Shown piece by piece: positions 7,501 through 56,447 of a stretch of DNA of 64,000 bases; within the stretch, counting starts at the first letter, position 1, and every line of letters begins with the position of its first letter. The notes beneath the pieces are model-generated. The model ran no database searches. It had not been told where the DNA came from and worked only from the letters and a program-made list of their open reading frames with translations. This stretch comes from Patescibacteria group bacterium. Its GTDB lineage: Bacteria > Patescibacteriota > Minisyncoccia > Phycocordibacterales > CSBR16-119. Position numbers and translations under genes: made by a program. The stretch covers positions 94,408 to 158,407 of the forward strand of contig JBPOJJ010000002.1 of the NCBI GenBank assembly GCA_052033715.1, read 5' to 3'.

Positions 7501-10500
7501 CTAGCAACCCCAGATGAACTATCCCATGGCTCTTTTTGTGTGCCAGAACTTGCCGTTGCGCCAGCTTTCAACATTTCTGTTATTGACAGTTGAGCTCCCG
7601 TTCCTCCTGAAACTCCGTCTTGAGACAAAAAGCCACTGTTGCTTGTTGCATAATCAACGAGAGCACCTTTTAGGAAATTTAGAGTTGAAATATACGGCGG
7701 ACAAGCAAGAGCTGTATGGTAGCCCAAAACATCTGTTTTATTTTTCAAGAAACTTGGTTCGTATTGTGAACCACCTATATAACTTTGTGTTGAAGTACAA
7801 TTTCCTGGACTACCTCCGGCAGCATAATTCGATACCGTAGTGTGTTCCGTTGCTAAATTATTTTGATTGAACAATCCAGCGAGAGTTAGTATATTCGAAT
7901 GTCTTATCGGCGCTCTATTTGTATCGAATGTTGAAATTGAATAAATCTTACTTGTTGGATGTGTGTTATCAGCCTGTACACCCTGATCTACGAACTGTTT
8001 ACCTTCGTTATAGTTTCCTGAAGCAAAAGGCAACAAGAAAGCTGGGATGAGGTTATGAGTTTGTCGTGGAGTCAAAAATCCGGAAGAATTTTCAAAATAG
8101 GCATTTGTTGGCATGCTGCCAGAACTAAGCAACGCATCACCATCAACATATTGCCCTTTTGCAAATGCTACAACCAGAGAAACACATGGTTCTGTTCCAC
8201 TGCCGGTATTACAATTAGTGGTAGCGTTTCCAACCATGAAAGGATATCTCCACACAAGCATCGCGCCTTGAATGTCAGGAGAACCAAGACCGGCCGAAGT
8301 ATATGCAGAAGTTATCTGATTTAGAACATGAGCTCGCATGTTTGTTCCACCGAAACCTGTTTCGAAAGTGCTTCTTAGCATAATCCTGCCATTATTATCC
8401 ATCGGCGCGTTAAAACTAAGGGTTACTTTGTTTTGCGCAGGAATACCTCTTTGTTGTATATAGTAATCAGCTAGCTGACACGATTGGGAGTATTGTGAAT
8501 TGCACACAACGGCTATTTGATTTGGATTGAATGACCTTTGTGGAGTTGAAACTATTGGCGCCGAAGATGGAGGTGCGCTTGCAACGCTAAATGTAACACT
8601 TACGCTTGATGTCATCGGATTTCCAGCCGTATCTTGGCAGCGAACATATCTTGTATAAGATGTTCCGTCTGTCAAACCAAGGAGCGGATAGTTGTGAGAA
8701 GTCGATCCAGAGCCAGTAAAGGTGTTGGTCATGGAAGCGTAAGCAGTATCTGTTGTTGCCCACTTACAAGTTGCAGCTTCATTTGTCGTGGCTGTCATCG
8801 TAAATGTTGTTGTACCCGCGGAGAGAACCTGATTATTTGTCGGCGCGGTAATGTTAGCCGTTGGAGGAATTGTGTCAGTTGGTGGTGGAACGTATGAATC
8901 AATATTGTTTTCATTGACCCAACCATCAGTACCAGTTGCAAAGTCGACATACCAATAATTGATTCCGCCACTTATCCAAACTGGATTTATAGGTCCAGCC
9001 GAGCTGTTGGTTATCACGCCAACTGTACCAGCAACTTGATTTCCGGCATTACCAGAAGCGTCAGGTGTAACCTTGATGCTTGCTGTGGTATTTGTCTCAA
9101 CCTGGTTACCATTGGCAAAACTAGTTGAGAGTGTTGGAGCACTGACAGCATTTGAAACACCTGAAGTATTTCCAACGTTATCAACCGCGGTAATCGTATA
9201 GCTATAAGTTCCTGTTGATGTGACGCTGGTATCAACAAAAGTTGTTTGGTTTCCAACGTTTACTGTTGTGCCAGGATTTCTGGTGACATTGTAGTGATTA
9301 ACTCCTCCGGCATCTGTCGAAGCTGCCCAAGACAATCTAATCTCTCCTGCCGAACGATATGTTGAGGCTGCAGAAGTTGGATTGGTTGGAGGAGTTAGAT
9401 CGTCAAAGTTAGACAGGATGAATTGATTAACGACTGGTGTTCCAGCTGCGCCTGTACAAGTGGCGGCGGCATAAGGGGTGACGGTGAGGGTATATGCGCC
9501 CAAAATCTGAGTCGATGTTGGCCAAGAAGTATATGTCCCCGAAGCATCGCCATAAAGAGCAAATGGTGAAGAGCTTTCGCACTGAGTATAGGCGGTAAAT
9601 CCAGACGGCCCAGTTAGATCAAATTTGATACTTGCTGGAGCTGGTGTGCCTGGATTTGCTTTGATTGAGAAAGCTCCGCTAAGTGGTGCATATGTGGCGT
9701 TCGCCTGACTTCCAACGTTTAGCTGCTGACCAGAGGCGAGGGTGGACACAACTGTGCCGTTTATTTGAACAACCTGAAGAGAGGAAACGATTGTTGGTAT
9801 CGCTGTCGTTGTTGCTGTAACTGCAGATGATTGAGCAGAACAATTTTGCGTTGGCGCACTGTCGCAAGCAGAGATGGTGTATGAATAGAGTGTTCCAGCA
9901 ACCAAATCAAGATCCGTCATCGAAGTGCCTGAGATTGGAGAGCCAATGTAAGTACCATTTCGATAAATTCTATAAGTAACTGGAGAAGAAGCATCTGTCA
10001 CAGCATTCCAAGACAAAGCAACGGTTGTCGAAGTAACTGCGCCAACAGAAAGCGTTGGTACAGCTGGAGCGGTAGTATCGACTGGAGCGGCCACGCTAAA
10101 CTCACGACTTACACTTGTCGTCATTGTGTTTCCGACGGTGTCCTGGCAGCGTACGTATCGAGTGTATGATGTTCCGTTAACAAGACCCGTAAGCGACGCG
10201 TTGTGGCTAGTAGAACCAGCCCCAGCAAGTGTGTTGATCATGCTTGAGTAGGCAACGTCTGTTGTGTTCCATTTACATGTTGCCGCTTCGTTTGTTGTGA
10301 CCGACAAGGTTGTGCTTGTCGTACCAGCCGGCAGAACTTGACCCGCGGTTGGAGCAGTAATTGTGGCTGTTGGAGCAGTTGCATCCGACGGCGCTGCTGT
10401 CGTACCACTAACTGCGGATGATTGAGCAGAACAATTTGTGGTAATTGCTATATAGCAAGCCTGAACCTTGTAGTAATAAGTTACGTTTGGAGAAAGAGAC

Positions 10501-11858
10501 GAGTTTGTGTAGGTGAGGGCCGTTTGGAGAGTTGAGTTAAGTTGGGAGAAGGATCCGGTGGCTGAAGTTCCTCGGAAAATTTTATATCCGATTGTCTGCC
10601 CCGCCGCCCCCGTCGAAGCAGCCCAGCTAACGGTGATTGAATTTTGGGTTGAGGTTGTGGCGAGACCAGACGGAGTTGAAGGCGCGGCAACAGTTGCGGT
10701 TGAAGTCGTCCCAGAAACTTGAGAGGTGAGCGATGAAACGTTGCTTGCATCATCACGCGCGCGGAGTCTGTATTTGTAAGTTGTGCCGGGATTTAGGTTT
10801 TGGTGAGTAAAAGTGTGAGTTCCAGCAAGGACAGTTCCGACAGGTGTGGTTGTATTAACAGAAGTTGATCCTCCCGCGTTGGCATAAATTACATAATCAA
10901 AGACGTTAGCAGAAGACGAAGGAGACCAATTCAACGTAAGTGAGCTTGTTGTCGGAGAAACGACAGTAACACTTGTTGGCGCGGCAACGGCGAGCGTTGT
11001 TCCAGCAACCCTGGCGGAAAGCGCCGATTTATTGCCCGCAGCATCCACGGCCTTGATATTGTAGCGATAGGTTCTACTAGAAAGGAGCCCTGAATTTGTA
11101 TAAGTAGTTGCTGGGGCATTTACAATGGCAAATGGCGTCGTGGTATTAACACTGGTCGCACCACCATTATTTCGATAAATCTCGTACTTTACGACTCCTA
11201 CATTGTCGGTCGAAGCTGTCCATGAAACACGCAAAGAACTTGATGTGGCCAAACTAATATTTACACCAGTCGGGACCGAGGGCGCAACGATATCGGCAGC
11301 TGGGTATGTACAAGAGCCATTGTCGACGGTCGCATTCGGATTGTAGTTTGTGGCCGCAGGATCAGTACAGCCAGGAATAGGTGCTGGGGCAGACACAAAA
11401 TTCATCCCAACGGCCTGAGTTATAGAATTATAGTCTGTGTTTGTCGTCAGGTCACGGAAAAATACAACGCACTGGAGTTTAAAATTAGAACCAGGAGTTA
11501 TGCTTGGAAGAGTAACCGTTTTACTATGATTCCCGGCTGTGAGATATTCATTACTTGTAGCTCCGTATTGGTATATTTCAAAAGTACCCACCTGAGCACC
11601 ATTATTCTGAAACCAAGACCATTGCATTCTTCTTACGACAATGTTAGGGCCCGTGGTGCCGACCGTACAAGTCATGTTCCTGGTTTCTCCAGGATAAAGA
11701 GTTGTATTCTGAGCAGGGTCAGTTAGGCTTATTGACCCAACAGCGTTACTAACGCTGGCAACTTGGGCTTTTTGGTTGTCTCCACCAGAGAGCAGAGATC
11801 CGAGCGACACAACGAACGCAAGCGCGATGACTAGAAAGAAAGCCTTTTGTAATTTCAT
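4593..11858 (-). CDS. Giant (2421 aa) secreted surface protein: signal peptide, multiple FN3/Ig-like repeats, central unknown ~450 aa domain, C-terminal right-handed parallel beta-helix region
   Basis: N-terminal signal peptide (MKLQKAFFLVIALAFVVSLGSLLSG). Many repeats of the SW.AS.D..GV..Y.IYR FN3 signature. NxIxN/beta-helix-like repeats near the C-terminus (NNIIYDFNRSGIAF...). Two diverged copies of a ~95 aa module (..TTNEAATCKW.TTD.AY.SM.NT..G.GSTSHN..L.GL..GTSYTRYVRCQDT.GN.M..SVS..FSV). Confidence 0.85.
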   Translation of the reverse strand: MKLQKAFFLVIALAFVVSLGSLLSGGDNQKAQVASVSNAVGSISLTDPAQNTTLYPGETRNMTCTVGTTGPNIVVRRMQWSWFQNNGAQVGTFEIYQYGATSNEYLTAGNHSKTVTLPSITPGSNFKLQCVVFFRDLTTNTDYNSITQAVGMNFVSAPAPIPGCTDPAATNYNPNATVDNGSCTYPAADIVAPSVPTGVNISLATSSSLRVSWTASTDNVGVVKYEIYRNNGGATSVNTTTPFAIVNAPATTYTNSGLLSSRTYRYNIKAVDAAGNKSALSARVAGTTLAVAAPTSVTVVSPTTSSLTLNWSPSSSANVFDYVIYANAGGSTSVNTTTPVGTVLAGTHTFTHQNLNPGTTYKYRLRARDDASNVSSLTSQVSGTTSTATVAAPSTPSGLATTSTQNSITVSWAASTGAAGQTIGYKIFRGTSATGSFSQLNSTLQTALTYTNSSLSPNVTYYYKVQACYIAITTNCSAQSSAVSGTTAAPSDATAPTATITAPTAGQVLPAGTTSTTLSVTTNEAATCKWNTTDVAYSSMINTLAGAGSTSHNASLTGLVNGTSYTRYVRCQDTVGNTMTTSVSREFSVAAPVDTTAPAVPTLSVGAVTSTTVALSWNAVTDASSPVTYRIYRNGTYIGSPISGTSMTDLDLVAGTLYSYTISACDSAPTQNCSAQSSAVTATTTAIPTIVSSLQVVQINGTVVSTLASGQQLNVGSQANATYAPLSGAFSIKANPGTPAPASIKFDLTGPSGFTAYTQCESSSPFALYGDASGTYTSWPTSTQILGAYTLTVTPYAAATCTGAAGTPVVNQFILSNFDDLTPPTNPTSAASTYRSAGEIRLSWAASTDAGGVNHYNVTRNPGTTVNVGNQTTFVDTSVTSTGTYSYTITAVDNVGNTSGVSNAVSAPTLSTSFANGNQVETNTTASIKVTPDASGNAGNQVAGTVGVITNSSAGPINPVWISGGINYWYVDFATGTDGWVNENNIDSYVPPPTDTIPPTANITAPTNNQVLSAGTTTFTMTATTNEAATCKWATTDTAYASMTNTFTGSGSTSHNYPLLGLTDGTSYTRYVRCQDTAGNPMTSSVSVTFSVASAPPSSAPIVSTPQRSFNPNQIAVVCNSQYSQSCQLADYYIQQRGIPAQNKVTLSFNAPMDNNGRIMLRSTFETGFGGTNMRAHVLNQITSAYTSAGLGSPDIQGAMLVWRYPFMVGNATTNCNTGSGTEPCVSLVVAFAKGQYVDGDALLSSGSMPTNAYFENSSGFLTPRQTHNLIPAFLLPFASGNYNEGKQFVDQGVQADNTHPTSKIYSISTFDTNRAPIRHSNILTLAGLFNQNNLATEHTTVSNYAAGGSPGNCTSTQSYIGGSQYEPSFLKNKTDVLGYHTALACPPYISTLNFLKGALVDYATSNSGFLSQDGVSGGTGAQLSITEMLKAGATASSGTQKEPWDSSSGVARKSSKTTQLWREYYTGASALQSYWSSVEKNGNTNFVGEPLANPWKDPQITFSNNILAINITHIKPGETWKLQSSTNGTSWTDVSGQTSITAPNGKLGIKTITLSNATAPYYRLVNTNNSSLPQIQRAVNGSGGGTPLIDNENPVWTAGTPNLATASPTTTSLTVSWNTATDATTPITYKLQRRTLPSGTFAEVYSGGATSFSNTGLVAGTSYEYQVRACDGVTAPNCTSWSSATTGTTSSDPTPPPPTGGQTMNGINGAVGPSLTTNPTSCTNPSGGTIFYVDAVSGNDSNNGTSVSTPWKTISKVNSSMSSINAGTMICFKREQSHRGRLAITKSGTASSKIIVDAYGAGSAPVISGNVLVTNWTQHSGNIWKATVSSAPASTPKYLFINSAYQTQARQPNTGWYFTNSRGANLITDSDNSWLSAQGSNSLTNGEVVTRGSPWSISIGKITGNSGSRIDLQRYDHTTPGTAMKYGSQWTNLAWGYILRNKLSLLDTAGEWYFDSATNTVYLWAPGNANPNTLTVEMTSESDGVYIASAGHIIVRNLIVEGQTGYAVWLRSQSGTNLKGITVENLEIRNAYHGVYHSGIDGVAESDKNTLRNNYLHDLNVTGISVQGGNGHLIEGNVIERVSTVEDRMYSSEMTHSGIIHIGGGSNIVSRRNIVRDTGYAGIWAAGSGTITENLVERAMKTLTDGAGITFDNTNGLTISKNIVKDIGVGSGQNAGTGGSPNMASQPILYVGYVARDKAYYFGDGTVGPIINLDLDSNIAINATDGIWVDHNTLFRDNKIRNNIIYDFNRSGIAFADWSNYRTVSGGCPTPDSNSPCFWPQYNDVVTGNKIYGIASYQNPLYFLHSYSNGTGAVADFGTINSNYYSNPYRTTKVQQMKNFSGQTNNWTLGQWKTSSNEDVNSTDGTYTATQAPQIFYNATISPTSQVITNACRVNGQSTSGTQTYTIQPFTAIVVEYGNC

Positions 11859-18125: not shown

Positions 18126-18446
18126 TTACATATTGGCGGCTTCTTCGGCCAAAACCATCTCGCAGTACTTCGCCACGATCTGATTCTTGGCGACTGGACC
18201 CGTTGCCGCTTCGTGCGCCTTGAAAAGTTCATCTGGCGTCTCGAACTTCCCGAGCTGCAAAAGTTCGATGAGCTCCTGGTCCTTTGGACATGGAATGTTC
18301 CATGCTGCGGCGATCTGTCCGACGCTGAACGGGCCGTTTTTGGCTAATTCCGTCGCTCCATCCCAGTTAGAAATGCTCTTCGCTGGCGGCTTGGTTATGG
18401 TACTCATGATGGCGTGGTGTTTTAATGCTATATTACACAAGCCCAC
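18126..18446 (-). CDS. Hypothetical protein, GC-rich (~50%) relative to flanks
   Basis: 106 aa ORF with rho-independent terminator-like hairpin downstream (18093-18133). No recognisable family. Confidence 0.4.
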   Translation of the reverse strand: MGLCNIALKHHAIMSTITKPPAKSISNWDGATELAKNGPFSVGQIAAAWNIPCPKDQELIELLQLGKFETPDELFKAHEAATGPVAKNQIVAKYCEMVLAEEAANM

Positions 18447-24228: not shown

Positions 24229-24496
24229 GGAAATATTTTAACATATCCAATGGGGACTCTGTCACGCATAAATTTCCTGACGGAAATTTTGCTTAAGCCC
24301 GTTTTTTAATTTGTGGTCACAAATAAGGACTCGCTCACGAGTTACTAATTCGCTACGCTTATAAGTACTCGCGAGCCCGCCTCGCAGTCGCTGGGGCGAC
24401 ACGGCTGCGACTTTCTCGTCCTGACAGAGGCCAAGCAGTTGGCCTCTTTCCCGGGCACAAAATAAAAAGACTGGCCAAAGCCAGCTTTCTATTTTG

Positions 24497-24578
24497 TGCC
24501 CGGGACAGGACTCGAACCTGCATGCCTTTCGGCGCTACCACCTCAAGGTAGTAAGTCTACCAGTTTCTCCACCCGGGC
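24497..24578 (-). tRNA. tRNA-Leu(GAG): tRNA-Leu (anticodon GAG), long variable arm
   Basis: Reverse complement GCCCGGGTGGAGAAACTGGTAGACTTACTACCTTGAGGTGGTAGCGCCGAAAGGCATGCAGGTTCGAGTCCTGTCCCGGGCA. Anticodon loop TTGAGGT. Confidence 0.75.
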
Positions 24579-24803: not shown

Positions 24804-25160
24804 TCAGCCGACGACGAGCCTCTTCAGGTCCAGAGCAGAATTTCCACACAAGTGTTCAGCTGCCCTGACGATCAGGTAGAAGGAAACCCTGAATTCGCCA
24901 CCCGGATTTGGGGTGCGCTCAAGGCAGAGGAAGCATGTCACTGTCTGATCGTCATCGACACCGAACCTTCGAAAGGTCTCTTCCCGCAACGTCGTCTTGC
25001 GCAGTAAAAGATGGTAGTCGACAGAACTGTTCTTCAGATCCCTGAGGAAGGACTTTCCTTCCGAACCCTCAAACAAGGGTACTCCTTGGCTTGGTGGCAT
25101 GGGTATCAATGCCCTCTCTGGCGTTTTGTTCATCGCGTGCATGGTTTGCTTGTTCGTCAT
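24804..25160 (-). CDS. Hypothetical protein, GC-rich (~52%)
   Basis: AAGGAG Shine-Dalgarno 9 nt upstream of ATG. Rho-independent terminator hairpin at 24757-24785 followed by a T-run on the minus strand. No family recognised. Confidence 0.5.
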   Translation of the reverse strand: MTNKQTMHAMNKTPERALIPMPPSQGVPLFEGSEGKSFLRDLKNSSVDYHLLLRKTTLREETFRRFGVDDDQTVTCFLCLERTPNPGGEFRVSFYLIVRAAEHLCGNSALDLKRLVVG

Positions 25161-26044: not shown

Positions 26045-26851
26045 CTACTGCACATAATACCGCACACCTACGCGCCATCCGTCAGTGACCTTGTAGCCGA
26101 TACGAGCCAATTCGTCGCGCTCTGCTTCTTCGGGCATGACGACAAGTCCTTCGAGCACAACATGCGGAACCGGCTTAAAAGAAATACCGGCGCCGTACCC
26201 AGTGAACATCTCCTGAGTCAGCACGACCTCAAGACTTCGCAAGGGCAAGACTTTTTTGGCCGGAACAAGTAGGTGCCCGAGTCGGCCAGTGGCCCTGATG
26301 AACGAATGCATGTCGTTCAGTTCGAAAGTATTCGAGATCAGGAATGTCCAATGCTTCTGAGACGTCTGCATGTACGCGCCCCACAAAGGATACGTATCGA
26401 ACATTTTACTTCGACGAGTAATGAAATTCCCGTCCGAAGCAACATGGCGATAGTATTTGCCACTAGACACTCCGAAGCTCCATCGAAGTGGACGACATGT
26501 TACTCCGAGACTGATCCGCGACGAAATGTAGTGCGACGGATAGCCGTCTAGACCCACCAAAACGTAGGGCTCGAAAAGATGATCTCTCTTGGCGGGAAAG
26601 TAGAATTGAATTTCCATTTGTCCGCCATACAAACGAGATCTCGATTCCACGTCGCCCAACCGCTTGGTCTGGTTGTCGGTCATGGATTCGGTTCGCGGAA
26701 TCATGCAATCGAATCGAAGTAACACGATAACGTCGTTAGTCGTGTCCGCGCGGTTTGGGATAAAATCCGAAACCAGGTTCATCGCTAGTTGGGCCGAGGC
26801 AGTAAGCCAAGAGATTCCAACAGCAAAAATCAAGCAACACATCGTCTTCAT
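26045..26851 (-). CDS. Secreted hypothetical protein, GC-rich (~53%), C-terminal amphipathic beta-strand pattern (beta-barrel-like)
   Basis: Signal peptide MKTMCCLIFAVGISWLTASAQ. Alternating hydrophobic pattern ending ...GWRVGVRYYVQ. Composition strongly atypical versus flanks. Confidence 0.5.
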   Translation of the reverse strand: MKTMCCLIFAVGISWLTASAQLAMNLVSDFIPNRADTTNDVIVLLRFDCMIPRTESMTDNQTKRLGDVESRSRLYGGQMEIQFYFPAKRDHLFEPYVLVGLDGYPSHYISSRISLGVTCRPLRWSFGVSSGKYYRHVASDGNFITRRSKMFDTYPLWGAYMQTSQKHWTFLISNTFELNDMHSFIRATGRLGHLLVPAKKVLPLRSLEVVLTQEMFTGYGAGISFKPVPHVVLEGLVVMPEEAERDELARIGYKVTDGWRVGVRYYVQ

Positions 26852-35567: not shown

Positions 35568-35792
35568 TTATTTTGGTACTTCATCCACTCCCGACCCTCC
35601 CCAAGGATGACAGCGCGAAATTCGTCGGAAAGAAAGCCAAAAACCCTTGAAAAATCCGTGTTTTTGGAAGGCTTCACGCGAATAGTGTGAACAAGTTGGG
35701 TAAAACCGGCAATTTACGCCAAGAATACGGAAAAGGGGAGAAAGGGTGTGTTGATAGAGCCAAATCAATGAAATAGCTATATATTTCAACAT
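35568..35792 (-). CDS. yidD: Membrane protein insertion efficiency factor YidD
   Basis: YQHTLSPL...[14 protein letters not shown]...[11 protein letters not shown] is the YidD signature. Confidence 0.9.
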
Positions 35793-36112
35793 ATTTTCGC
35801 CTTTTCTAGGATCGCAATAATATCAGCTTCCGTTTCGGCAAACGTTGCTTTTTCGACACCCTTTTTACCAAAAAGTATTATGTAGTATGGGTTTTTGACC
35901 GCTTTGCCGAGCACGGAGTAAGCTCGGCGACGGATTTTGTTCCTAGAAATGGCTGTTTTGGCGACCTTTTTAGCAACCACAACACTAAAATGCGTTGAAT
36001 TTAAAGGGTTTTTCAGGAATCTGAGCGTGAAAAAAGACGAGTTTAAAAACCCGCCTTTTTTCATTACTTTCTCGAAATCTTCCCGATTCATCCTGTTGGT
36101 CTTCGGGATCAT
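35786..36112 (-). CDS. rnpA: RNase P protein component
   Basis: Basic 108 aa protein with RNR motif region ([14 protein letters not shown]). Sits between rpmH and yidD. Confidence 0.85.
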
Positions 36113-36118
36113 GAGAAT

Positions 36119-36281
36119 ATTATTTAGCCGACTTAATACGAGGTTTAGAAACGGTTAGTTTCTTGCGTCCTTTGCGGCGTCGAGCAAGCAAAACCTTCTT
36201 TCCGGAGGTCGTTTTGGATCGAGCACGAAAGCCGTGAGTTTTGGCTCTTTTTTTCTTTTTTGGATTGTATGTTCGTGACAT
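36119..36281 (-). CDS. rpmH: 50S ribosomal protein L34 (with short C-terminal extension)
   Basis: Manual translation [53 protein letters not shown]. Below the ORF-track size cut-off. Confidence 0.8.
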
Positions 36282-36379
36282 GTAGGGGAGTATATACTAG
36301 ACATAAAAATAAATCAATGTCTGGTGCGAAAAAACTTCTATTTAGAACCTGGTTTGTATATAATTTATTCATAAATTTT

Positions 36380-36427
36380 TTATCCACAGCAATCCACAAG
36401 TTGTTAACAATTTTTGAATTATCCACA
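36380..36427. promoter_or_regulatory. DnaA-box cluster (candidate oriC / dnaA promoter region) in the rpmH-dnaA spacer
   Basis: Two perfect TTATCCACA boxes (36380-36388, 36419-36427) and a near-box AATCCACAA (36390-36398). AT-rich flanks (36300-36480). Confidence 0.75.
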
Positions 36428-36480
36428 GTTTCTGAAAATAGATTATAATTCCAAACATTAATCTTTATAAAAATTAAATC

Positions 36481-37830
36481 ATGGTTGATAACAAGCAAAT
36501 TTGGGAAAGTTGTTTAGACGAGATCGAATCCTCTCTTTCCAGAGCCAATTTTGTCACCTGGTTTAAAAACACCAACCTTTCCAAGCAAGAAAACGGCACC
36601 GCCTACATAAGTGTTCCAAATGAATTTGTTAAAGATTGGTTAAACACCAAACACAAGACGACAATATTGGGCCTTCTTAGAAATTACTCTGACGGAATTC
36701 GAAGCGTTGAGTTTGTAATTTCCAAACTTTCAAACAAAAAGCCGGAGGGGGACACGGGCGGCGGAGATGGTTTTGTGGTCAACGAACTTCCACTAAAGAA
36801 TCTCTACGTCGACAAAAAAGATAACTTGAATCCTCGCTACACATTTGACTCTTTTGTGGTTGGCTCTTTTAACGAACTCGCTCACGCCGCCGCTCAATCT
36901 ATAGTCAAAAATCCAGGACACAACTATAATCCCTTCTTCATCTACGGACCAACGGGCCTTGGTAAGACCCACCTTATCCAGGCGATAGGGAACTCAATAA
37001 AAGAAAAGTTCCCAAACAAACAAATTCACTACATTCCTCTCGAGAAATTCGCCATCGATTATGTAAACGCTCTTCGAAACAATAAACCAAACGAATTTAA
37101 GCAAAAATACCGCAAATACGATGTCTTGATCATGGACGACGTCCAATTTATCTCTAACAAAGAAAAGACCCAGGAGGAGCTCTTCCACCTTTTCAACACC
37201 CTCCACGAAACCCAAAAGCAAATAATCTTCTCCTCGGACAAACACCCAAACCAAATCATCGGCCTTGAAGATCGTCTCAGAACCCGTTTTGGCCAAGGGA
37301 TGATTGTTGACATAACCGAGCCAGATATTGAATCTAGAACAGCAATTATTCGCTCTAAGCTCGACGAAAACAGCCTGACTTTATCAGACGAGGTGGTTGA
37401 GTATATTGCTACGGCCATTTCGGGAAGCGTCCGCGAGCTCGAAGGAAGTTTAAACACAGTAATTTGCCAGATTCAGCTCAAAAAAAGAGACTTGTCGGTT
37501 GTGGAGGTTAAAAAGTTGATAAAAAACAACATCAAGCCAGGTAAAAACGTATCGATTCAGAGTGTGGTCAAGACAATTAGTGACTTCTATGAGGTTGAGG
37601 AGGAAAACATATATGAAAAGACTCGCCGAAAAGAGATTGTCAAAGCCCGACAGCTTATTATGTACATCCTTCGAGAAGACTTCAATATCTCGTACCCATT
37701 AATTGGCCAGAAGCTTGGGGGTAAAGACCACACAACCGTCATCCACTCCTGCCTGAAAATCAAGAACGACCTAAAAGGGGACCAAAAACTTGTTCGAGAC
37801 CTTGAGCAGATACGAATGATGTTTAAATAG
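36481..37830 (+). CDS. dnaA: Chromosomal replication initiator DnaA
   Basis: AAA+ Walker A GPTGLGKTHL, sensor motifs, and C-terminal DNA-binding domain (RQLIMYILRE...GGKDHTTV). Confidence 0.95.
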   Translation: MVDNKQIWESCLDEIESSLSRANFVTWFKNTNLSKQENGTAYISVPNEFVKDWLNTKHKTTILGLLRNYSDGIRSVEFVISKLSNKKPEGDTGGGDGFVVNELPLKNLYVDKKDNLNPRYTFDSFVVGSFNELAHAAAQSIVKNPGHNYNPFFIYGPTGLGKTHLIQAIGNSIKEKFPNKQIHYIPLEKFAIDYVNALRNNKPNEFKQKYRKYDVLIMDDVQFISNKEKTQEELFHLFNTLHETQKQIIFSSDKHPNQIIGLEDRLRTRFGQGMIVDITEPDIESRTAIIRSKLDENSLTLSDEVVEYIATAISGSVRELEGSLNTVICQIQLKKRDLSVVEVKKLIKNNIKPGKNVSIQSVVKTISDFYEVEEENIYEKTRRKEIVKARQLIMYILREDFNISYPLIGQKLGGKDHTTVIHSCLKIKNDLKGDQKLVRDLEQIRMMFK

Positions 37831-38061
37831 TGTTAATAAGTTCTTTAAAAGTAGGTGGAAATTCTTGTGGAATAAAACTAGTAACTTTCAATAAAAAGCC
37901 CTCGCGTTAAAAACCTCGGGGTTGTCGGCGAAAGTTACCTTGTTTTACACACCAGGATTTAGTTGTTTTGTCAGATTTTAAAAGGGCGGATGAGACTTAT
38001 ACACAATATCAACAGGGCTAATAATAATAGTAAATTTTAAAGAGTAATAAAAAAGAAAAAC

Positions 38062-39162
38062 ATGAAAATAGAATGTTCGGTGGAAAAACTAAAAGACGCG
38101 GTTGGTAAGGCAGACAAGATCGTCGGTAAGACCTCCTCTCTAGAGAGCCTTAGGTCTATCCTCTTTATTGCTTCTGGTAATAGTTTGAAAATCCGTTCGA
38201 CAAACCTGTCTCTTGGTTTAGAGATCGAGATTCCGGCCAAAATAGAAGTTGAGGGCGAAGTCGTTGTCTCTGGCGAAGTGATAAACAACACATTGATGAA
38301 TCTTAGTGTTTCGGACAAGACTATACGACTCGAGAAAGTAAACGAAAACCTTTTTTTAAACAACAAGAAAACAGCCATAACAATTAAAAGCATTTCTTCT
38401 GAAGATTTTCCAACAATTCCGACGGTCGAAGGAGCTTCTTTTGAAATCGAAACAGAAAAATTCATAGACGGCATAAAGGCGGTATTTTATAGTTCAGCCA
38501 CAAGCGATATTAAGCCAGAAATTGCCAGTGTATATATATACTCCCAGGAAAACAATATCTTTTTTGTCTCGACCGATTCTTTTCGTTTAGCTGAAAAAAA
38601 TATTAGGACAAAAAAACCAGCAGAAGTCGAAGGTTTAATAATTCCTTTTAAAAATGTTTTAGAAATTATAAAACTTCTCTCGGACACAAAAGGGGACATG
38701 AGGGTTTATTACAACAAGAACCAGATTTCTTTTGTCAGTTCGGGTTTTTATCTAACATCTAGGCTTATCAACGGATCTTTTCCAGACTATCGCCAGATTG
38801 TGCCAAAAGAATACAAAACTCGCGCTGTGCTAATCAAGAAAGATTTTATAGAGGCCATCAGGCTCTCTAATGTCTTCTCAGACAAGTTTAATCAGATAAA
38901 ACTTATCATTGACCCAAAAGCTAAAAAACTCGAGGTCTACGCCCTAAACAAAGATGTAGGTGAAAACAAAACATTTGTTGATGGGGCACTTGAGGGAAAC
39001 GCTGTTGATATGAATTTAAATTACAAATATGTTCTTGATTGCTTCCAGTCCATAAACGAAGATTCTGTTGTGCTTGAAATGAATGAAGTAAACCGGCCGA
39101 TGGTCATAAAAGGCAACGGAGATAAGACGTTTTTATACTTAATTATGCCGATGAATCGCTAA
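38062..39162 (+). CDS. dnaN: DNA polymerase III beta sliding clamp
   Basis: 366 aa, three-domain clamp layout, located immediately after dnaA. Confidence 0.85.
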   Translation: MKIECSVEKLKDAVGKADKIVGKTSSLESLRSILFIASGNSLKIRSTNLSLGLEIEIPAKIEVEGEVVVSGEVINNTLMNLSVSDKTIRLEKVNENLFLNNKKTAITIKSISSEDFPTIPTVEGASFEIETEKFIDGIKAVFYSSATSDIKPEIASVYIYSQENNIFFVSTDSFRLAEKNIRTKKPAEVEGLIIPFKNVLEIIKLLSDTKGDMRVYYNKNQISFVSSGFYLTSRLINGSFPDYRQIVPKEYKTRAVLIKKDFIEAIRLSNVFSDKFNQIKLIIDPKAKKLEVYALNKDVGENKTFVDGALEGNAVDMNLNYKYVLDCFQSINEDSVVLEMNEVNRPMVIKGNGDKTFLYLIMPMNR

Positions 39163-44113: not shown

Positions 44114-44506
44114 TTGTGTTATGTTAAGGGCCAACCTGACAAGCACATGAAAAACATCGTATTGGTCGTCCCGCACCCGTTGATATCGGCAACCTTCCAG
44201 GATGTTCTTGGGCTCAAGGATCATTGCTTTTTACGGGCAACGACCGCTCAAGAGTTCCGTACGATCGTGGAGCTCTTGGACCCGGCACTGCCTGACTTGG
44301 TCGCTATGACAAGCGATGCATCGGATCCCGTGATCAAGGCCGTTGTTGATGGGTGGCCAGCCTTGCACGAGCGCATGGTGATCATGGCTATGGATCCTGC
44401 GGTCGCTTTTGACATGGTGCCATTGGTGTCTGTTCCCGTTCTTCCTAGGAGCAATGATCGATACAGCGACTTCTTCAAGAAGTGTCGTGAGATCCTTGGC
44501 GAGTAG
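44114..44506 (+). CDS. Hypothetical protein, GC-rich (~52%), possibly degenerate receiver-like fold; start may be internal Met (44147)
   Basis: Strong terminator at 44524-44558 (GCCGAAGCCCCCATCTCGGGGGCTTCGC + T-run). Interrupts the usual ruvC-yebC adjacency on the opposite strand. Confidence 0.45.
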   Translation: MCYVKGQPDKHMKNIVLVVPHPLISATFQDVLGLKDHCFLRATTAQEFRTIVELLDPALPDLVAMTSDASDPVIKAVVDGWPALHERMVIMAMDPAVAFDMVPLVSVPVLPRSNDRYSDFFKKCREILGE

Positions 44507-46704: not shown

Positions 46705-48537
46705 TTAATTTTCTTTTGTTGAGATCGGGATTTCATCCTCGGCGTATTCGTAAATGTCGACAACTTTTTTCAATTCTTCGATAGAGGTAACTCCGTTTAT
46801 GCATTTTACAAATCCATCCTCAACCATATTTAGAATTCCTTGTTTTTCGGAAATTTCTTTGATTTCTTTTTCACTTGGATTCATCGGCATGATATTTTGC
46901 AGAGCCTCATCGGCCATGATCGCCTCAAAGACCCCAATGCGGCCTTTATAACCAATACCATTACAAGCAGGACATCCTGGCGCCGTCCAAAGTTCTATTT
47001 TTTGTTTTGGGTCGACGTTGTACTCTTTTAATTTTTTTCCAAGTTTGTCGGCGCGGACCAAAGTTTTTCCAATAACGTCTTCCTCTTCCTTGGTTGCTGG
47101 TCTTTTGATCTTACATTTAGTACAAAGTTTTCGAGTGAGGCGTTGCGCGATAGCCATTGAGAGCGCTGAAGCAAGAATTTTTGGATTGACTCCGAGGTCG
47201 ATTAGACGAGGCACGACGCCGGCGGCGTTGTTGGTATGGAGGGTTGAGAATACCATGTGTCCAGTGAGCGAGGCCTCAACGGCAATACGCGCTGTGTCAG
47301 AGTCACGGATTTCTCCAACCATCACCACATCAGGATCCTGACGCAGGGCCGAGACAAGTCCCTCGAGGAAGTCGTAACCACGCTCGGGATTGGTTTGTGT
47401 CTGGGTTATTCCTTCGAGGTGATATTCAACCGGTTCCTCGATTGTCAGAATTTTAATTTCCGGCGAGTAAATTCGACGCAAGAATGCGTAGAGAGAAGTA
47501 GATTTTCCCGAACCTGTCGGGCCAGTGATAAGGATGAGTCCGTTTGGTTTATCAATCTCGCGCGAGATGATCCCGTAAAGTCTTTTGTCGATTCCCATAT
47601 CCTCAAGATCAACTTGAATTGATTTTGGATTCAAGATTCGCATGACAATACCTTCGCCGAACGCTCCGGGAATGATGCTGGTTCGCATGCTAATTTCTTC
47701 ACCACTTACGAAAATAGAAAATCTTCCATCTTGAGCTTTGTTGTGTGCTAGTTTTAGACCAGATAGAAGTTTGATGCGCGAATTTATGAATTCAAAAGTT
47801 TTGTAATCGATGAATGTGATATTGTGAAGTATTCCATCGAGCCTGATTCTCAAACGCACTTGGCCATCTTCGGGCTCGATATGTACGTCAGAAGCGCCAA
47901 GCGCGATTGCGCCCGCAAAAATAATTTCAATAATTTTTGAAACTCGGTGTGTCGTGGTTTCTGCGTTTGTCGCGTCGATCATTGTCTTGATGTCTTCGAG
48001 TAACTTAATTTTTTCGGCTGTTTTTAAAAGTGTATCGCCGGAAATATCCAAGCTTCCGGCTTTTATTTTTTCCGCTTGAGAAATTTCTTGGTAGCGATCC
48101 CAGGCTTTTTCAAGTGAGGCATGCGAAGCCATAAACCAACTAATTACAAAACCTTTTCTTTTCAAATCGGCTTCGAGTTCAGCCAAACCATCGTGTTCTG
48201 GTGCGCGAACGGCGACCAAGAGTTTTTTTCCGGCGATATTAAAGGGTGCGACCTCTAGTTTTCTAGCCAGATCTTCCGGAACAGTCTTGAGGGCGTCGTT
48301 TTCTAGGATGACTTTGCTCAAATCCACGTAGGGGACATGATATTTGGTCTCAGCTAGAGTCTTGGCCAAAGCCTCCTCCTCCTGTAAATAGAGAAGTTCG
48401 AGCTTTTTATCCTCTTTTTGGTCATCGAATCGGGGCATATTGGTAAACATATTATACGGGAAATTGTCAAAAAACCCTTGTTTTTCCTGTGTATTTAGAC
48501 CAGGAAAGGGGCGGTTTAAACGCTTGACAAGATTCAT
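46705..48537 (-). CDS. pilB: Type IV pilus / type II secretion assembly ATPase (PilB/GspE family)
   Basis: Walker A GPTGSGKST, Walker B/Asp box, tetracysteine CPACNG...C, N-terminal GSPII-like domain. ORF-track N-terminal extension to 48939 rejected (overlaps divergent gene). Start placed at MNLVKRLNRPF (ATG 48535-48537). Confidence 0.85.
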   Translation of the reverse strand: MNLVKRLNRPFPGLNTQEKQGFFDNFPYNMFTNMPRFDDQKEDKKLELLYLQEEEALAKTLAETKYHVPYVDLSKVILENDALKTVPEDLARKLEVAPFNIAGKKLLVAVRAPEHDGLAELEADLKRKGFVISWFMASHASLEKAWDRYQEISQAEKIKAGSLDISGDTLLKTAEKIKLLEDIKTMIDATNAETTTHRVSKIIEIIFAGAIALGASDVHIEPEDGQVRLRIRLDGILHNITFIDYKTFEFINSRIKLLSGLKLAHNKAQDGRFSIFVSGEEISMRTSIIPGAFGEGIVMRILNPKSIQVDLEDMGIDKRLYGIISREIDKPNGLILITGPTGSGKSTSLYAFLRRIYSPEIKILTIEEPVEYHLEGITQTQTNPERGYDFLEGLVSALRQDPDVVMVGEIRDSDTARIAVEASLTGHMVFSTLHTNNAAGVVPRLIDLGVNPKILASALSMAIAQRLTRKLCTKCKIKRPATKEEEDVIGKTLVRADKLGKKLKEYNVDPKQKIELWTAPGCPACNGIGYKGRIGVFEAIMADEALQNIMPMNPSEKEIKEISEKQGILNMVEDGFVKCINGVTSIEELKKVVDIYEYAEDEIPISTKEN

Positions 48538-48633
48538 GGTATATGCTATGATACACACAAAGGTTCCAGGCTCTTTGCAAAGTGAACCTACAACCAACGA
48601 AACAACAACCACAACCCAAATACCCAGAACGAC

Positions 48634-49569
48634 ATGAAAAAGCTGTTTTCCCTCCTCGCCATCTTCGTGATGGCCCTGAGCATGAACGCTCAGCAGAACA
48701 ACGCAACCCTGCTTCAGGGGCAAGCGTACCAGATCATGCAGACCATGGAGCGTGATAGCGTCCCGCAGATGACGATCGGAGTCGGTGGCCTCATCGCCAA
48801 CGGCCCGGCAGTGTCTCCTCGGACGGTTTCCCCTCCTGCTTCTGCACAACGCCCCGCGGCGAACAATGGTGTTCCCGCGAAAGCCAAAACGACGAAGATC
48901 AATGGTGTTGAGGTGTTCGTCACCCCGTACGGCCTGCATCTTCCAGGAGACATGTTCCCTGACCCGAATACAGGCGAGGAACTAGTCGTTGATGATTACG
49001 GTAACGTGCTCAAGACCGGCAAGATGTGGAAACAAGCGCCGCTACCTAATCCCAGCAACAACACGGGAAACGCGACAGCTAGTTTGACGGTGGTGCCTTC
49101 GATCGGCGATCTCTACGACACGTTGCCTGGCGGCCGCATTGTGGCTATCGGCGATGTGCGCGTGATCGATTCGGCAGGAAGCACTACTCAAGCCGGTTCA
49201 GGAACAGCCTCTACTGGTGGCGAATCGAAGTTCAAGAAGATGCAGATCGCACCAAACGAAATCCTCTTCAACGAGGAAACTGGTGAGGTTGCTCTGCTCG
49301 ATCGTCGCCGTGAGCGCTTGCGCACAAACCGTGGATACGGCGTTGGCACTAGCCCCGAAGAAGATCATCAACCGAATACGTGGCCGAACGCAATGGCTGC
49401 GCGGTTCAGTTCGATCGATGGTTCTGGAAGCGCCGCGAGCGGTGGAATGATGCTTGGTGCCGGAGGTGTTGCCTGCGGTCCGACCGTGGTCTACAATCAA
49501 CGGCCTCGCGCCGTTGCTACTTACGGTGTGCGTGGTGGTGATTGCTGGACTCCTTCGTGGAGGCGGTAG
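48634..49569 (+). CDS. Secreted hypothetical protein, strongly GC-rich (~57%)
   Basis: Signal peptide MKKLFSLLAIFVMALSMNAQ. Gly/Ala/Ser/Pro-rich. No family recognised. Composition very different from genome background. Confidence 0.6.
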   Translation: MKKLFSLLAIFVMALSMNAQQNNATLLQGQAYQIMQTMERDSVPQMTIGVGGLIANGPAVSPRTVSPPASAQRPAANNGVPAKAKTTKINGVEVFVTPYGLHLPGDMFPDPNTGEELVVDDYGNVLKTGKMWKQAPLPNPSNNTGNATASLTVVPSIGDLYDTLPGGRIVAIGDVRVIDSAGSTTQAGSGTASTGGESKFKKMQIAPNEILFNEETGEVALLDRRRERLRTNRGYGVGTSPEEDHQPNTWPNAMAARFSSIDGSGSAASGGMMLGAGGVACGPTVVYNQRPRAVATYGVRGGDCWTPSWRR

Positions 49570-49677
49570 GTTCTGAAATAGCTTGATGGGCGAGAGACTT
49601 CAAATCTCGCCCTCATTCCTAAGTTCTTGATTTAAAAATCGAGGATTTAGAGATGAAGATTAAATAATATAAATTAT

Positions 49678-51258
49678 ATGAAAAATATTACAAACAAAAT
49701 AAAACTAATCCCGTTTGCCATATTCGCTTTTGCGTTTTTGTTTGGTGCGCCGCAGTCAACTTTGGCTGCTTGTACCGCAACAGGTGGACCAACCGGATAC
49801 AATGAATGGCTCCAGAACCAATGGTGGTGTTTGGATGGTTCAAATGACGATGATAATGACGATGACGATAACGACGGGGACAACGACAATCTAAACGTCA
49901 TTACTCGTTCAGCTATCAATATCGACGAAGATTCTGCGACAATTCGTGGAGAAATCACAGAAATTGATGAAAGCGAGGACTACGTCAGATTCTTCCAGTG
50001 GGGAACTTCATCTTCAAATCTAAATCAAACAAGCACAATGTCTGGTACAACAGACAACGAGGGAACATTCTCTATGACCCTCTCTGGACTAAACGATAAC
50101 GACACTTACTACTATCGTGCTTGTGCGGAAAACGTCGACAATTCAAATGACGACGACTGTGGTTCGACATACTATTTCACAACCGACAACGATAGTTCTG
50201 ACGATAATGACAACGACAACGACAACGATAACGATAATGACAACGATAACGACGGTGACGTCTTGGGCGCGACAGATGGAGACATCATTACTACAGACGC
50301 GACGAATGTTACCGCCACATCTGCGACCCTAAACGGACTTGTTGCAGAAAACGACAGTTCTGAAACAGTTTGGTTCGAATATGGTCCAACCGTAGGTCTT
50401 GGATATAGAACAGCAAACAAAACCATCTACGCTCAACAGAGTATTGTCTCAACAACAATCTACGGCCTTACTCCTGGAAAAGCTTATTTCTTCCGATTGG
50501 TTTCAGCTGATGGCGAAACAGGCGACTTTAAAGCCTTCATTACAAATTCTGCCACAGTAACTTCTTCGGGAGGCGGTCACACTAGTGGAGGATTAAGTAA
50601 TTCTGGAAGCTCTAACTCGAACAACAATTCAAACAACAACACAAATACTGGCGAAGTAATATTCGAAACTATCCAGTACTTGAAAGTCGAATTGGTCGCT
50701 GCTCACTCAGACGTTCGTCCTGGAGACATAATTCCTTTCGAAGTCGTTTATGAAAACCTAAGCGACAAGAACTTGAAAGACGTTATTGTGGTTGTTGATT
50801 TTCCAAAGGAAATGACAGTAACTGATGTTGGTCCAGGTAAACTAATCTCGACTCAGAAGATTGAAGTCAGAATCCCGGTTCTTCCAGCTTACACAAAAGG
50901 TAACTTTGGTGTAACAGCGAAGGTTGGCGAAAAAACTCCTGACGAGACTTTCTTGGTCACCGTTGTTAATGCGAACTTCGAACACCCAGTTGAAAAGAAC
51001 ACTCGAATGGAAGTTGTAAACTCTTCAATCATCCGTGTCTCGATGCTTGCTCCAATGCGTGTGAGCCAGGCAGCTGCACTTGGAACTTTGGGAACATTTT
51101 TCCCAACTACATTCCTCGGATGGCTAGTGCTTATCACTGTTATCGTTATTCTCATCTACGTCTCTCGTAAACTTTACAAAGAGCGTGAAGAGGAAAAGAA
51201 ACGAAAGCAGAAAGAGCAAGCCGCCCACCAGCCTCAATTCAAAATAATCGATAGATAA
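49678..51258 (+). CDS. Secreted, C-terminally membrane-anchored protein with acidic D/N repeat tracts and Ig/FN3-like domains
   Basis: Signal peptide, DDDNDDDDNDGDNDN and (DN)n tracts, C-terminal TM (LGWLVLITVIVILIYV) followed by KR-rich tail. Confidence 0.7.
   Translation: MKNITNKIKLIPFAIFAFAFLFGAPQSTLAACTATGGPTGYNEWLQNQWWCLDGSNDDDNDDDDNDGDNDNLNVITRSAINIDEDSATIRGEITEIDESEDYVRFFQWGTSSSNLNQTSTMSGTTDNEGTFSMTLSGLNDNDTYYYRACAENVDNSNDDDCGSTYYFTTDNDSSDDNDNDNDNDNDNDNDNDGDVLGATDGDIITTDATNVTATSATLNGLVAENDSSETVWFEYGPTVGLGYRTANKTIYAQQSIVSTTIYGLTPGKAYFFRLVSADGETGDFKAFITNSATVTSSGGGHTSGGLSNSGSSNSNNNSNNNTNTGEVIFETIQYLKVELVAAHSDVRPGDIIPFEVVYENLSDKNLKDVIVVVDFPKEMTVTDVGPGKLISTQKIEVRIPVLPAYTKGNFGVTAKVGEKTPDETFLVTVVNANFEHPVEKNTRMEVVNSSIIRVSMLAPMRVSQAAALGTLGTFFPTTFLGWLVLITVIVILIYVSRKLYKEREEEKKRKQKEQAAHQPQFKIIDR
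50201..50259 (+). repeat. In-frame hexanucleotide microsatellite (GACAAC/GATAAC)n encoding (DN)n. Shorter tract at 49845-49890.
   Basis: gacgataatgacaacgacaacgacaacgataacgataatgacaacgataacgacggtgac seen directly. Confidence 0.8.
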
Positions 51259-55906: not shown

Positions 55907-56443
55907 CTAGGAGGGGGTGGAGAATCTTCGTTTGTTGAGGGTCATTAGGATTATGACTACGAAGAAGGCTAGAGACATGACAGGGATATCGACAAAGCCG
56001 AAAACTTTGACGTAATTTTGGAGACACGACACGCCGATAACGTCGCAGGCCAAGACGTCTTTACCCAAAAACTTCTCAATATTGTGCCAAAGTGCGATAA
56101 GTCCACCAATGATCGATAAAACTAGGGCGTAATCCCAGATTTCTGTGGCTTTACGCTTCATAAGGGCGACAAAGGACATTATGGCAATCGGATACATAAG
56201 AATTCTCTGGTACCAACAGAGCGGGCAAGGTACAAATCCGATGAATTGGTAGGTCAAACTTCCGGCCATGCCAGCCAAAGAGATCAAAAACACCAACAGG
56301 AGTCCCTTTTTAGCCATCCAGGCGTAAATTGGACCCCTGTCTTTGGTAAACAGGCCAATAAGAAGCACTAAAGAAATAGCCAGAGACAGGATTGTCCCTA
56401 TAGCAAAGATAAAATTGACGGTGTTAATGATATCGGCGTTCAT
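55907..56443 (-). CDS. Disulfide bond formation protein B (DsbB/BdbC family)
   Basis: Four TM helices with CPLCWYQR in the first extracytoplasmic loop and a second Cys pair (C...C) in the second loop. Confidence 0.75.
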   Translation of the reverse strand: MNADIINTVNFIFAIGTILSLAISLVLLIGLFTKDRGPIYAWMAKKGLLLVFLISLAGMAGSLTYQFIGFVPCPLCWYQRILMYPIAIMSFVALMKRKATEIWDYALVLSIIGGLIALWHNIEKFLGKDVLACDVIGVSCLQNYVKVFGFVDIPVMSLAFFVVIILMTLNKRRFSTPS

Positions 56444-56447
56444 GTTT

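Follow-up and report, generated by a model that had tools for sequence, protein, structure and literature searches.

A hypervariable, GC-rich gene for a predicted secreted protein in a fixed slot beside pilB in Candidatus Saccharibacteria

Surface-protein genes that differ sharply between close relatives are known from mosaic loci such as pspA and pspC of pneumococci and tbpB, opa and porB of Neisseria. There, conserved flanks and a signal peptide frame modules that are shuffled between strains, near-identical strains carry divergent alleles, breakpoints fall within the gene, and the organism is naturally competent. Here we describe a gene with all of these traits, X, which lies at 48634-49569 on the forward strand of a 64,000-nucleotide stretch of DNA from a Patescibacteria group bacterium (assembly GCA_052033715.1, contig JBPOJJ010000002.1, positions 94,408 to 158,407), called the window below. 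X encodes a predicted secreted protein and diverges from pilB, the gene of a type IV pilus ATPase. It has no sequence or domain relation to the mosaic loci named above, and it departs from them in two respects: X is far richer in GC than its genome, with a composition that is constant over hosts of 33-50% GC, and its tail and the tip of the protein encoded by the adjacent gene are co-inherited. Borrelia vlsE is likewise a hypervariable surface-protein gene that is GC-richer than its AT-rich genome, but it varies within one cell by means of adjacent silent vls cassettes, whereas X varies between strains, has no cassettes in the window and shows no homology to vls. The family of X is new, and with it come an unusual decoupling of its composition from that of its hosts across a whole clade and the co-inherited tip of its partner.

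A GC-rich gene in a conserved slot

The features needed for the argument are given below by their positions in the window, W denoting the allele of the window and L-numbers (L001, L004 and so on) denoting related loci.

46705-48438, reverse strand: pilB, encoding a type IV pilus/type II secretion system E (T2SS-E) ATPase, the conserved left flank of the slot; 95%-identical orthologues carry PF00437 (T2SSE) and PF05157 (MshEN)
48524-48552, forward strand: predicted promoter of X, TTGACA, a 17-nt spacer and a TG-extended -10 element, TATGAT, with 11 of 12 consensus positions
48559-48633, forward strand: predicted 5' untranslated region (UTR) of X, about 75 nt, its start inferred from the position of the -10 element
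48634-49569, forward strand: X, ATG start, 311 amino acids (aa); mature protein about 30.5 kDa, pI 7.9
48634-48693, forward strand: predicted signal peptide of X, aa 1-20, MKKLFSLLAIFVMALSMNA followed by Q (QQ after cleavage), its n/h/c layout read from the sequence
48886-49038, forward strand: module B1 of X, aa 85-135, KINGVEVF...KTGKMW, a predicted beta-hairpin, exchangeable
49234-49431, forward strand: core module D1 of X, aa 201-266, KMQIAPNEILFNEETGEVALLDRRRERLRTNRGYGVGTSPEEDHQPNTWPNAMAARFSSIDGSGSA, conserved, with variants D2-D4 in other alleles
49432-49566, forward strand: module E1 of X, a Gly-rich stretch and a Cys/aromatic/Arg C-terminal tail, CG.TVVYNQRP.AVATYG.RGGDCW...
49588-49656, forward strand: two stem-loops after the stop codon of X, GGGCGAGA...UCUCGCCC and then a long AU-rich hairpin
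49678-51258, forward strand: partner gene, encoding a 526-aa surface protein, directly downstream of X in 16 of 16 loci

A preliminary description of this DNA had placed a 311-codon open reading frame (ORF) with a signal peptide at exactly this position, diverging from pilB and without a recognisable family, and all of this is confirmed, including the strand and the ATG start. The pilB ATG lies at 48438 on the reverse strand, and the spacer between the two genes is 195 bp long. The GC content of X, 57.6%, agrees with the approximately 57% given there; the background of approximately 41% was slightly low, since the window as a whole has 43.7% and the 10 kb on either side of X 42.7%. X is the GC-richest of all 936-bp segments of the window (mean 43.7%, s.d. 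3.5%, z = 4.0), with GC at codon positions 1, 2 and 3 of 0.60, 0.51 and 0.62. The GC-rich block coincides with the coding sequence: GC drops to 46% in the 5' UTR and to 32% in the 3' spacer, and is 40% over the entire spacer between pilB and X. GC at third positions (GC3) is raised over the full length of the gene, reaching 0.85 in the signal peptide and 0.56 in the core, and A occupies 0.13 of third positions as against about 0.27 in the host genes of the window.

The predicted signal peptide runs from MKK through a 13-residue hydrophobic core (grand average of hydropathy 2.5) to a ...NA/Q site, a layout of the Sec/signal peptidase I type, and both the cleavage site between A and Q and the same layout are kept in every allele of X whose 5' end is present. 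No anchor motif was found in X, which signal-peptide prediction suggests is exported. X has no match in Pfam, NCBIfam, PHROGs, the PDB sequence profile or Rfam. Several ORFs overlap it on both strands, one of them (46705-48939) being the pilB ORF extended far upstream in frame, and these are by-products of GC-richness. X itself is protein-coding, because its differences from the 87%-identical allele L001 concentrate at third codon positions of the forward frame (23, 19 and 104 at positions 1, 2 and 3) and dN/dS is 0.10; the codon-position pattern also rules out a structured RNA or other non-coding element.

Searches with the 311-aa protein, which the preliminary description had proposed, recovered few relatives. 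A word-indexed search of 5.8 billion proteins gave seven, an exhaustive hidden Markov model (HMM) search of 1.84 billion cluster representatives gave 15, and a profile search added two; every one that was traced lies in the same slot. Neither these 15 matches nor the phage and viral searches, which were empty, include a relative from phage, virus or another taxon. The window's PilB is 96-83% identical to that of five metagenome-assembled genomes labelled uncultured Candidatus Saccharibacteria. In the relatives the gene order is pilB on the reverse strand, then X and a surface protein of about 480-530 aa with ND repeats and FN3-like domains, both forward, and then tsaE and polA. A signal-peptide ORF occupies the slot in 16 of 16 related loci with PilB 81-96% identical to that of the window, and the five GTDB Saccharibacteria genomes found by way of PilB hold one of 302-449 aa. 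Scanning genome contigs for X motifs gave no relative that tblastn confirmed, because the species representatives carry other, too divergent alleles, and relatives were recovered by the PilB scan instead; a PilB scan of metagenome contigs returned only distant PilB (at most 50% identity).

Chimeric assembly, raised earlier as a possible source of the contrast in composition, is excluded, since the independent assembly L007 matches positions 48283-49976 with no mismatch, covering both junctions, and the same junctions occur in at least 18 independent assemblies. No integrase, transposase, tRNA target or flanking repeat was found at the locus, the nearest tRNA being more than 7 kb away. X is thus a genuine chromosomal gene of one clade of Candidatus Saccharibacteria, without sequence relatives outside its slot. 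As for its left neighbour, pilB is solitary, its neighbours being ruvB and X, and none of pilC, pilT and pilM adjoins it; a TATAAT hexamer just 12 nt upstream of the pilB ATG suggests a very short or absent leader.

Across the 16 loci X has 54.4-62.0% GC and a GC3 of 0.586-0.735 (s.d. 0.045), while the flanking pilB and FN3 genes range from 0.18 to 0.62 in GC3 (s.d. 0.129), in flanks of 33-50% GC. Equally GC-rich homologues in low-GC relatives were what the preliminary description had named as speaking against its proposal of acquisition, and they exist: in the low-GC subclade the flanks have 33-36% GC and the neighbouring genes a GC3 of 0.17-0.20, and X still has 54-55% GC and a GC3 of 0.59-0.60. 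Third-position A, C, G and T in X are.13,.33,.29 and.26 in the window and.14,.33,.28 and.25 in L050, as compared with host-gene values of.28,.27,.17 and.28 in the window and.41,.11,.09 and.40 in L050. The codon analysis that had also been suggested shows usage to be atypical too. Host genes have 44.4% GC, X recoded with host codon usage would have 51.3%, and X is observed at 57.7%, so about half of the excess is due to amino-acid composition and about half to synonymous choice, chiefly the avoidance of A-ending codons. Gly (11.9 versus 7.3% in host proteins) and Pro (7.4 versus 3.8%) are enriched, as are Ala and Arg, and Lys, Ile, Glu and Phe are reduced.

This composition is not decaying. Neighbouring genes have a dS of 1.1-2.4 between these lineages, which is saturated, so neutral sites have had ample time to reach host composition. 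Polarised synonymous changes in X are balanced, with 32 from AT to GC and 38 from GC to AT, and give a GC3* of about 0.59 as against about 0.47 for pilB; these values come from three-taxon parsimony at near-saturated sites and are approximate, but the comparison with the neighbours is like for like. X is at its own compositional equilibrium, at a GC3 of about 0.6, and high GC is a persistent trait of the gene family.

Modular alleles and the adjacent surface protein

X is 24-87% identical to other alleles, whereas PilB is 81-96% identical over the same clade; in L013, for example, the figures are 95.6% for PilB and 37% for X. The rapid evolution that the preliminary description had offered as one possibility is likewise upheld by a dN of 0.29 against L004, where neighbouring genes have 0.035-0.09. 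The variation is organised in modules, B1-3, C1-2, D1-4 and E1, which occur in mutually incompatible combinations. C1D1, C2D1, C1D4 and C2D4 are all present, so no single tree explains the alleles, which are mosaics. Module B1 is found in W, L001 and P0009, and L004 has the unrelated B2 in its place (proportion of nonsynonymous differences, pN, 0.61 there). The D1 core differs from that of L004 by a pN of 0.00-0.01 in spite of a synonymous proportion (pS) of 0.45-0.79, and the core protein sequence is therefore under strong purifying selection. In nearly all alleles Cys is restricted to the last 45 or so residues, and X is low in complexity over most of its length and probably disordered.

Four loci show how such alleles arise. 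L049, L050, L052 and L053 have flanks that are 95-100% identical at the nucleotide level, and their X sequences are 24-64% identical. L052 is a recombinant: it is 100% L049-type up to about L052:3873, and past a breakpoint near L052:3874 it is 97-100% L050-type to the end of X, across the spacer and about 250 nt into the partner gene. Related Saccharibacteria thus swap alleles of X through homologous recombination. The natural competence of Saccharibacteria, which also need adhesins (PMC10633639), provides a route for the exchange. Within the window no segment of X has a second copy (the best blastn hit is 33 nt at 82%), and tblastn with 31 allele sequences found no silent cassette there. The hallmarks of a diversity-generating retroelement (DGR) were not found, in that X varies by replacement of whole modules and the window holds no template repeat. 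A gene of the bAvd/23S_rRNA_IVP family, the DGR accessory type, occurs in L004 (5674-6033, reverse strand) between ruvB and yebC, not beside X, and is absent from the equivalent place in the window.

The partner protein has a signal peptide and an aromatic tip loop bounded by Cys (CTATGGPTGYNEWLQNQWWC). It further has poly-(N/D) tracts, domains resembling fn3 and PhoD_N, and, at its C-terminus, a transmembrane anchor with a K/E tail. Its Pfam matches are Pur_ac_phosph_N (1.3e-7) and, more weakly, PhoD_N and fn3. The poly-(Asn/Asp) tracts are long and lie between the domains, for example at 49840-49900. The Cys-loop differs between lineages, and the loop of L016, GYNGFQVYP, recurs as the X tail of L049, GYTGFQIYP. 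About 6 kb from X, at 55907-56882 on the reverse strand, lies a DsbB homologue with a small membrane-anchored ORF just upstream, whose L001 orthologue has no Pfam match. DsbB suggests extracytoplasmic disulfide formation and is therefore relevant to the Cys residues of the X tail and of the partner's loop.

Taken across lineages, X tails and the tip loops of their own partners are alike. In L008 the two read GPVGYAQWQANQWW and GGPEGYNEWLQNQWW, in L015 RGVSHGVII and RGYSHGVPI, and L011 and L016 are comparable. When partner assignments were permuted, the likeness had p = 4e-4 with eight pairs. Leaving out the strongest pair gave 1e-3, ten pairs gave 2e-4 to 9e-4, and an internal control region in the same permutation gave p = 0.97; the signal is driven by 4-5 of the 10 lineages. 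In the shared motifs 12 of 28 third bases are the same. Synonymous sites thus differ, so the likeness is kept at the protein level, and recent gene conversion between the X tail and the partner tip is ruled out. In the low-GC population the tail type of X and the tip type of the partner form one haplotype block, and the divergent co-inherited block takes in the partner gene's 5' end. Taken together, the core of X is under purifying selection, the rest of it is diversifying, and it is genetically coupled to a surface stalk protein.

The flanking signals point to X being monocistronic and strongly transcribed. No site in the window other than its predicted promoter pairs a 17-nt spacer and the TG extension with a match to at least 11 of 12 consensus positions, and TTGACA and TATGCTA..AT are invariant over 10 lineages with widely differing flank GC and are also present in L052. 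The predicted 5' UTR, with 14% G, consists of a small 5'-proximal hairpin (GGUUC...GAACC) and then an unpaired, C/A-rich and G-poor leader of about 50 nt, in which no Shine-Dalgarno motif was found. Single-sequence folds of W, L014 and L016 each give one 5' hairpin and an unpaired leader, the stem sequences all being different, and RNAalifold predicted no pairs in a consensus structure of the 5' UTR. Past the stop codon the two stem-loops have a minimum free energy of -36.7 kcal/mol (z = -4.24), and none of 200 shuffles folds as well. They have no canonical U-tract and a terminator scan did not call them, and from their sequence they are likely a terminator or a 3' stabiliser. From the near-consensus promoter, the leader without a Shine-Dalgarno motif and the structured 3' end we infer strong expression of X.

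Explaining the locus

We consider it somewhat probable that X is a Sec-secreted, module-built, strongly expressed and diversifying extracellular ligand or coat component that acts with the adjacent stalk protein. X would be transcribed alone from an invariant near-consensus sigma-70 promoter by way of a C/A-rich leader without a Shine-Dalgarno motif. The locus is a hot spot of allelic replacement, at which modules, and blocks of the X 3' end and partner 5' end, are swapped by homologous recombination. As a variable extracellular ligand or coat component X would be under diversifying selection, its Cys/aromatic tail working with the matching Cys-loop at the tip of the stalk, either by docking or on a shared target, and the purpose may be the interaction of the epibiont with host cells or kin. 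For the high GC we favour a constraint that is specific to the gene and acts on its coding sequence or its transcript: the GC block does not reach past the ends of the coding sequence, and the co-inherited spacer and partner 5' end stay host-like. The spacer within the divergent co-inherited block has 16-32% GC, and the 5' end of the partner gene has a GC3 of 0.24-0.32, as compared with 0.15 for the rest of that gene and 0.59 for X.

A broader proposal, which we offer as a minority possibility, joins these two strands. In it X and the first 80 or so codons of the partner would form a polymorphic two-gene cassette, a secreted ligand with a matching tip, for allele-specific docking or self/host recognition, and X, like at least two other fast-evolving orphan genes, would be held at about 55-60% GC and poor in A, whatever the drift of the host genome (33-50% GC), by a force specific to a class of genes, either transcript selection or targeted mutation or repair, that is undescribed for Patescibacteria.

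Several observations weigh against this account of X. AlphaFold2 models of the window's X (11 sequences; mean pLDDT, predicted local distance difference test, 38) and of one long allele (9 sequences; 35) are unusable and lend no fold support to a role as adhesin or ligand; the beta module at aa 85-131 alone reaches 63-74. The 5' hairpin folds no better than shuffles (z -1.0 to +0.35). The window's own tail-tip pair is not significant (p = 0.73), and in the two pairs added later the own partner ranked fourth, not first. The search for cassettes and DGRs spanned 64 kb of the genome, and silent cassettes or a DGR may lie elsewhere. High expression alone does not explain the codon bias of X, since GC3 is ordinary (0.41) in the HU gene, for which high expression is expected (the window is without ribosomal-protein genes). 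Finally, two unrelated orphan ORFs of the window, at 26045-26851 on the reverse strand and 44147-44506 on the forward strand, share the third-position signature of X, which hints at a process common to a flexible class of genes rather than one specific to X.

The first of these ORFs has 50.9% GC, a GC3 of 0.58 and a signal peptide ending in ...SAQ. Its sole relative, L054 4777-5553, is 58% identical, syntenic between DAGK and exonuclease genes, and has 52.6% GC where its flanks have 46.5%; the dN between the two is 0.29, as against 0.05 for a neighbouring gene. Homologues of this ORF indicated no donor taxon, the one syntenic relative being all that was found. The second is a small gene between ruvC and yebC, with counterparts at L001 4024-4416 and L004 4716-5087. 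In these three lineages it has 49-53% GC, a GC3 of 0.56-0.64 and a third-position A of 0.11-0.19, it is nearly unrecognisable between W and L004 (dN 1.1), and it is absent in the low-GC subclade, where ruvC and yebC abut. Two short GC-rich candidate ORFs without family, at 18126-18407 and 24804-25160 on the reverse strand, have 53-54% GC and a GC3 of 0.64-0.65, and the latter adjoins tRNA-Leu (24496-24578).

Other explanations of the high GC place its cause outside X. The preliminary description had proposed, as one candidate explanation, that X came recently from a phage or another bacterium. The composition would then be a remnant of the donor genome, that of the phage or of an unrelated, GC-richer bacterium. 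The unusual base composition and codon usage of X and its lack of a family agree with this, and signal-peptide sites of the form ...A/Q are common in Bacteroidota. It is nonetheless very improbable: all 16 related loci have the same slot and the same promoter, composition is constant over hosts of 33-50% GC, X has no excess of GC-to-AT changes next to neighbours with saturated dS, integrase, tRNA and repeat boundaries are missing from the locus, phage and viral matches are nil, and those of the 15 HMM relatives that were traced sit in the slot. A subtler form of import, with the family native to GC-richer Saccharibacteria of the L016 lineage type and repeatedly transformed into low-GC relatives, leaving no time to ameliorate, would account for the similarity of GC3 between X (0.66) and flanks (0.56-0.68) in L016, for the very different alleles of near-identical strains, which bespeak recent replacement, and for one third-position signature in three unrelated orphan genes, and natural competence would supply the means (PMC10633639). 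Common import should, however, give a common composition, and the co-inherited spacer (16% GC) and partner 5' end are host-like; the shared modules are old (core pS 0.45-0.79), and no donor and recipient with near-identical X DNA across GC classes were found, which leaves this explanation rather unlikely. We regard it as similarly doubtful that X owes its high GC to GC-biased gene conversion in a hot spot of recombination, without selection on its sequence. X is locally the most recombining segment, its excess covers C- and G-ending codons alike, including ones unlikely to be translationally optimal, and recombining bacterial genes do have higher GC3 (Lassalle et al. 2015, PMC4450053). But the GC block ends sharply at the coding sequence, whereas the recombining block runs on through the AT-rich spacer into the partner, and swapped blocks of 24-64% identity should provide little heteroduplex for biased mismatch repair. 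The effect in X, a GC3 higher by 0.40 in the low-GC subclade, also appears much larger than the genome-wide differences reported for recombining genes.

Two further alternatives concern what X is. If it were a secreted polymorphic toxin or bacteriocin, with a co-varying protective or receptor determinant downstream, one would expect what is seen in the joint inheritance of the X 3' end and the start of the next gene, in the Gly-rich tail with its hydrophobic, Cys and Arg residues, and in the strong differences between strains. Against this stand the order of conservation, with the central core most conserved and the N-terminal and middle modules most variable, the reverse of polymorphic toxins; a downstream gene that encodes a large anchored surface protein and not a small immunity protein; a tail that resembles the partner tip rather than complementing it; and the absence of toxin, immunity or peptidase domains in Pfam, NCBIfam and PDB sequences (PADLOC was not searched). 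A toxin is thus quite improbable. That the locus is an artefact, whether an assembly chimera or a GC-rich structured RNA taken for a protein gene, deserves almost no credence. In AT-rich genomes an island of high GC is often an RNA gene, and spurious ORFs do overlap X on both strands, but L007 is exact across both junctions and more than 18 assemblies are alike, most substitutions are at third positions of forward-frame codons, and nothing within the ORF matches Rfam even at E <= 10.

The locus bears on a wider question. How Saccharibacteria, which live on the surface of other bacteria, choose host cells, and how their strains differ, is poorly understood. A gene with a strong predicted promoter, a predicted secreted product, high variability and a tie to the tip of a stalk is a concrete candidate for attachment and for differences between strains. 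Should a member of the clade, or a relative with the locus, prove cultivable, natural transformation, as in other Saccharibacteria (PMC10633639), would make the locus testable. Independently of function, one gene here keeps the same GC-rich, A-poor signature while host synonymous GC ranges from 18 to 62% and its co-inherited non-coding neighbour differs, so X sets forces on composition that are specific to a gene apart from history, from mutation bias and from gene conversion along a whole tract. It also carries a caution for screens of horizontal transfer, in that atypical composition alone would mislabel X as recently acquired.

Window features and related systems

Besides the genes already named, the window carries dnaA, dnaN, ruvABC, polA, tsaE and dsbB. 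The genes rnpA (reverse), dnaA and dnaN (both forward), at 35786-39162, mark a likely replication origin near 36.2-36.5 kb, and the minimum of the cumulative GC skew lies off it, near 29.5-30 kb. A 472-aa ORF with 51.5% GC (59997-61415, forward strand) has a sub-threshold match to OrfB_IS605/TnpB (29.3 bits, cut-off 30.5) and may be part of an IS200/IS605-type insertion element. Another large extracellular product for such a small genome is predicted at 4593-11858 on the reverse strand, a surface protein of 2421 aa that has a right-handed beta-helix region and five fn3 domains.

Genes that are hypervariable and adjoin a type IV pilus ATPase gene, as X does, bring to mind pilin variation (pilE/pilS) and pilus adhesins. 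X as a pilin or pseudopilin was considered and rejected, since no allele has a class III prepilin motif (G followed by F/M-T-L-x-E) or a hydrophobic pilin helix. With genomic islands and ORFans X shares atypical composition and codon usage, the lack of a family and a narrow taxonomic range. Islands differ from it in that X stands in stable synteny, without mobility genes or boundaries, and at equilibrium instead of in decay. ORFans and acquired genes are usually AT-richer than the genome, and X is GC-richer than its own.

A further likeness is to adjacent recognition pairs, such as IdsD and IdsE of Proteus, TgrB1 and TgrC1 of Dictyostelium and TraA of Myxococcus. X and its partner have no homology to these, their ends are alike rather than demonstrably complementary, and the signal is uneven across lineages and not significant for the pair of the window. 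What they have in common with them is the arrangement itself: two genes side by side, both for extracellular proteins, with variable ends that are co-inherited and change in step between strains.

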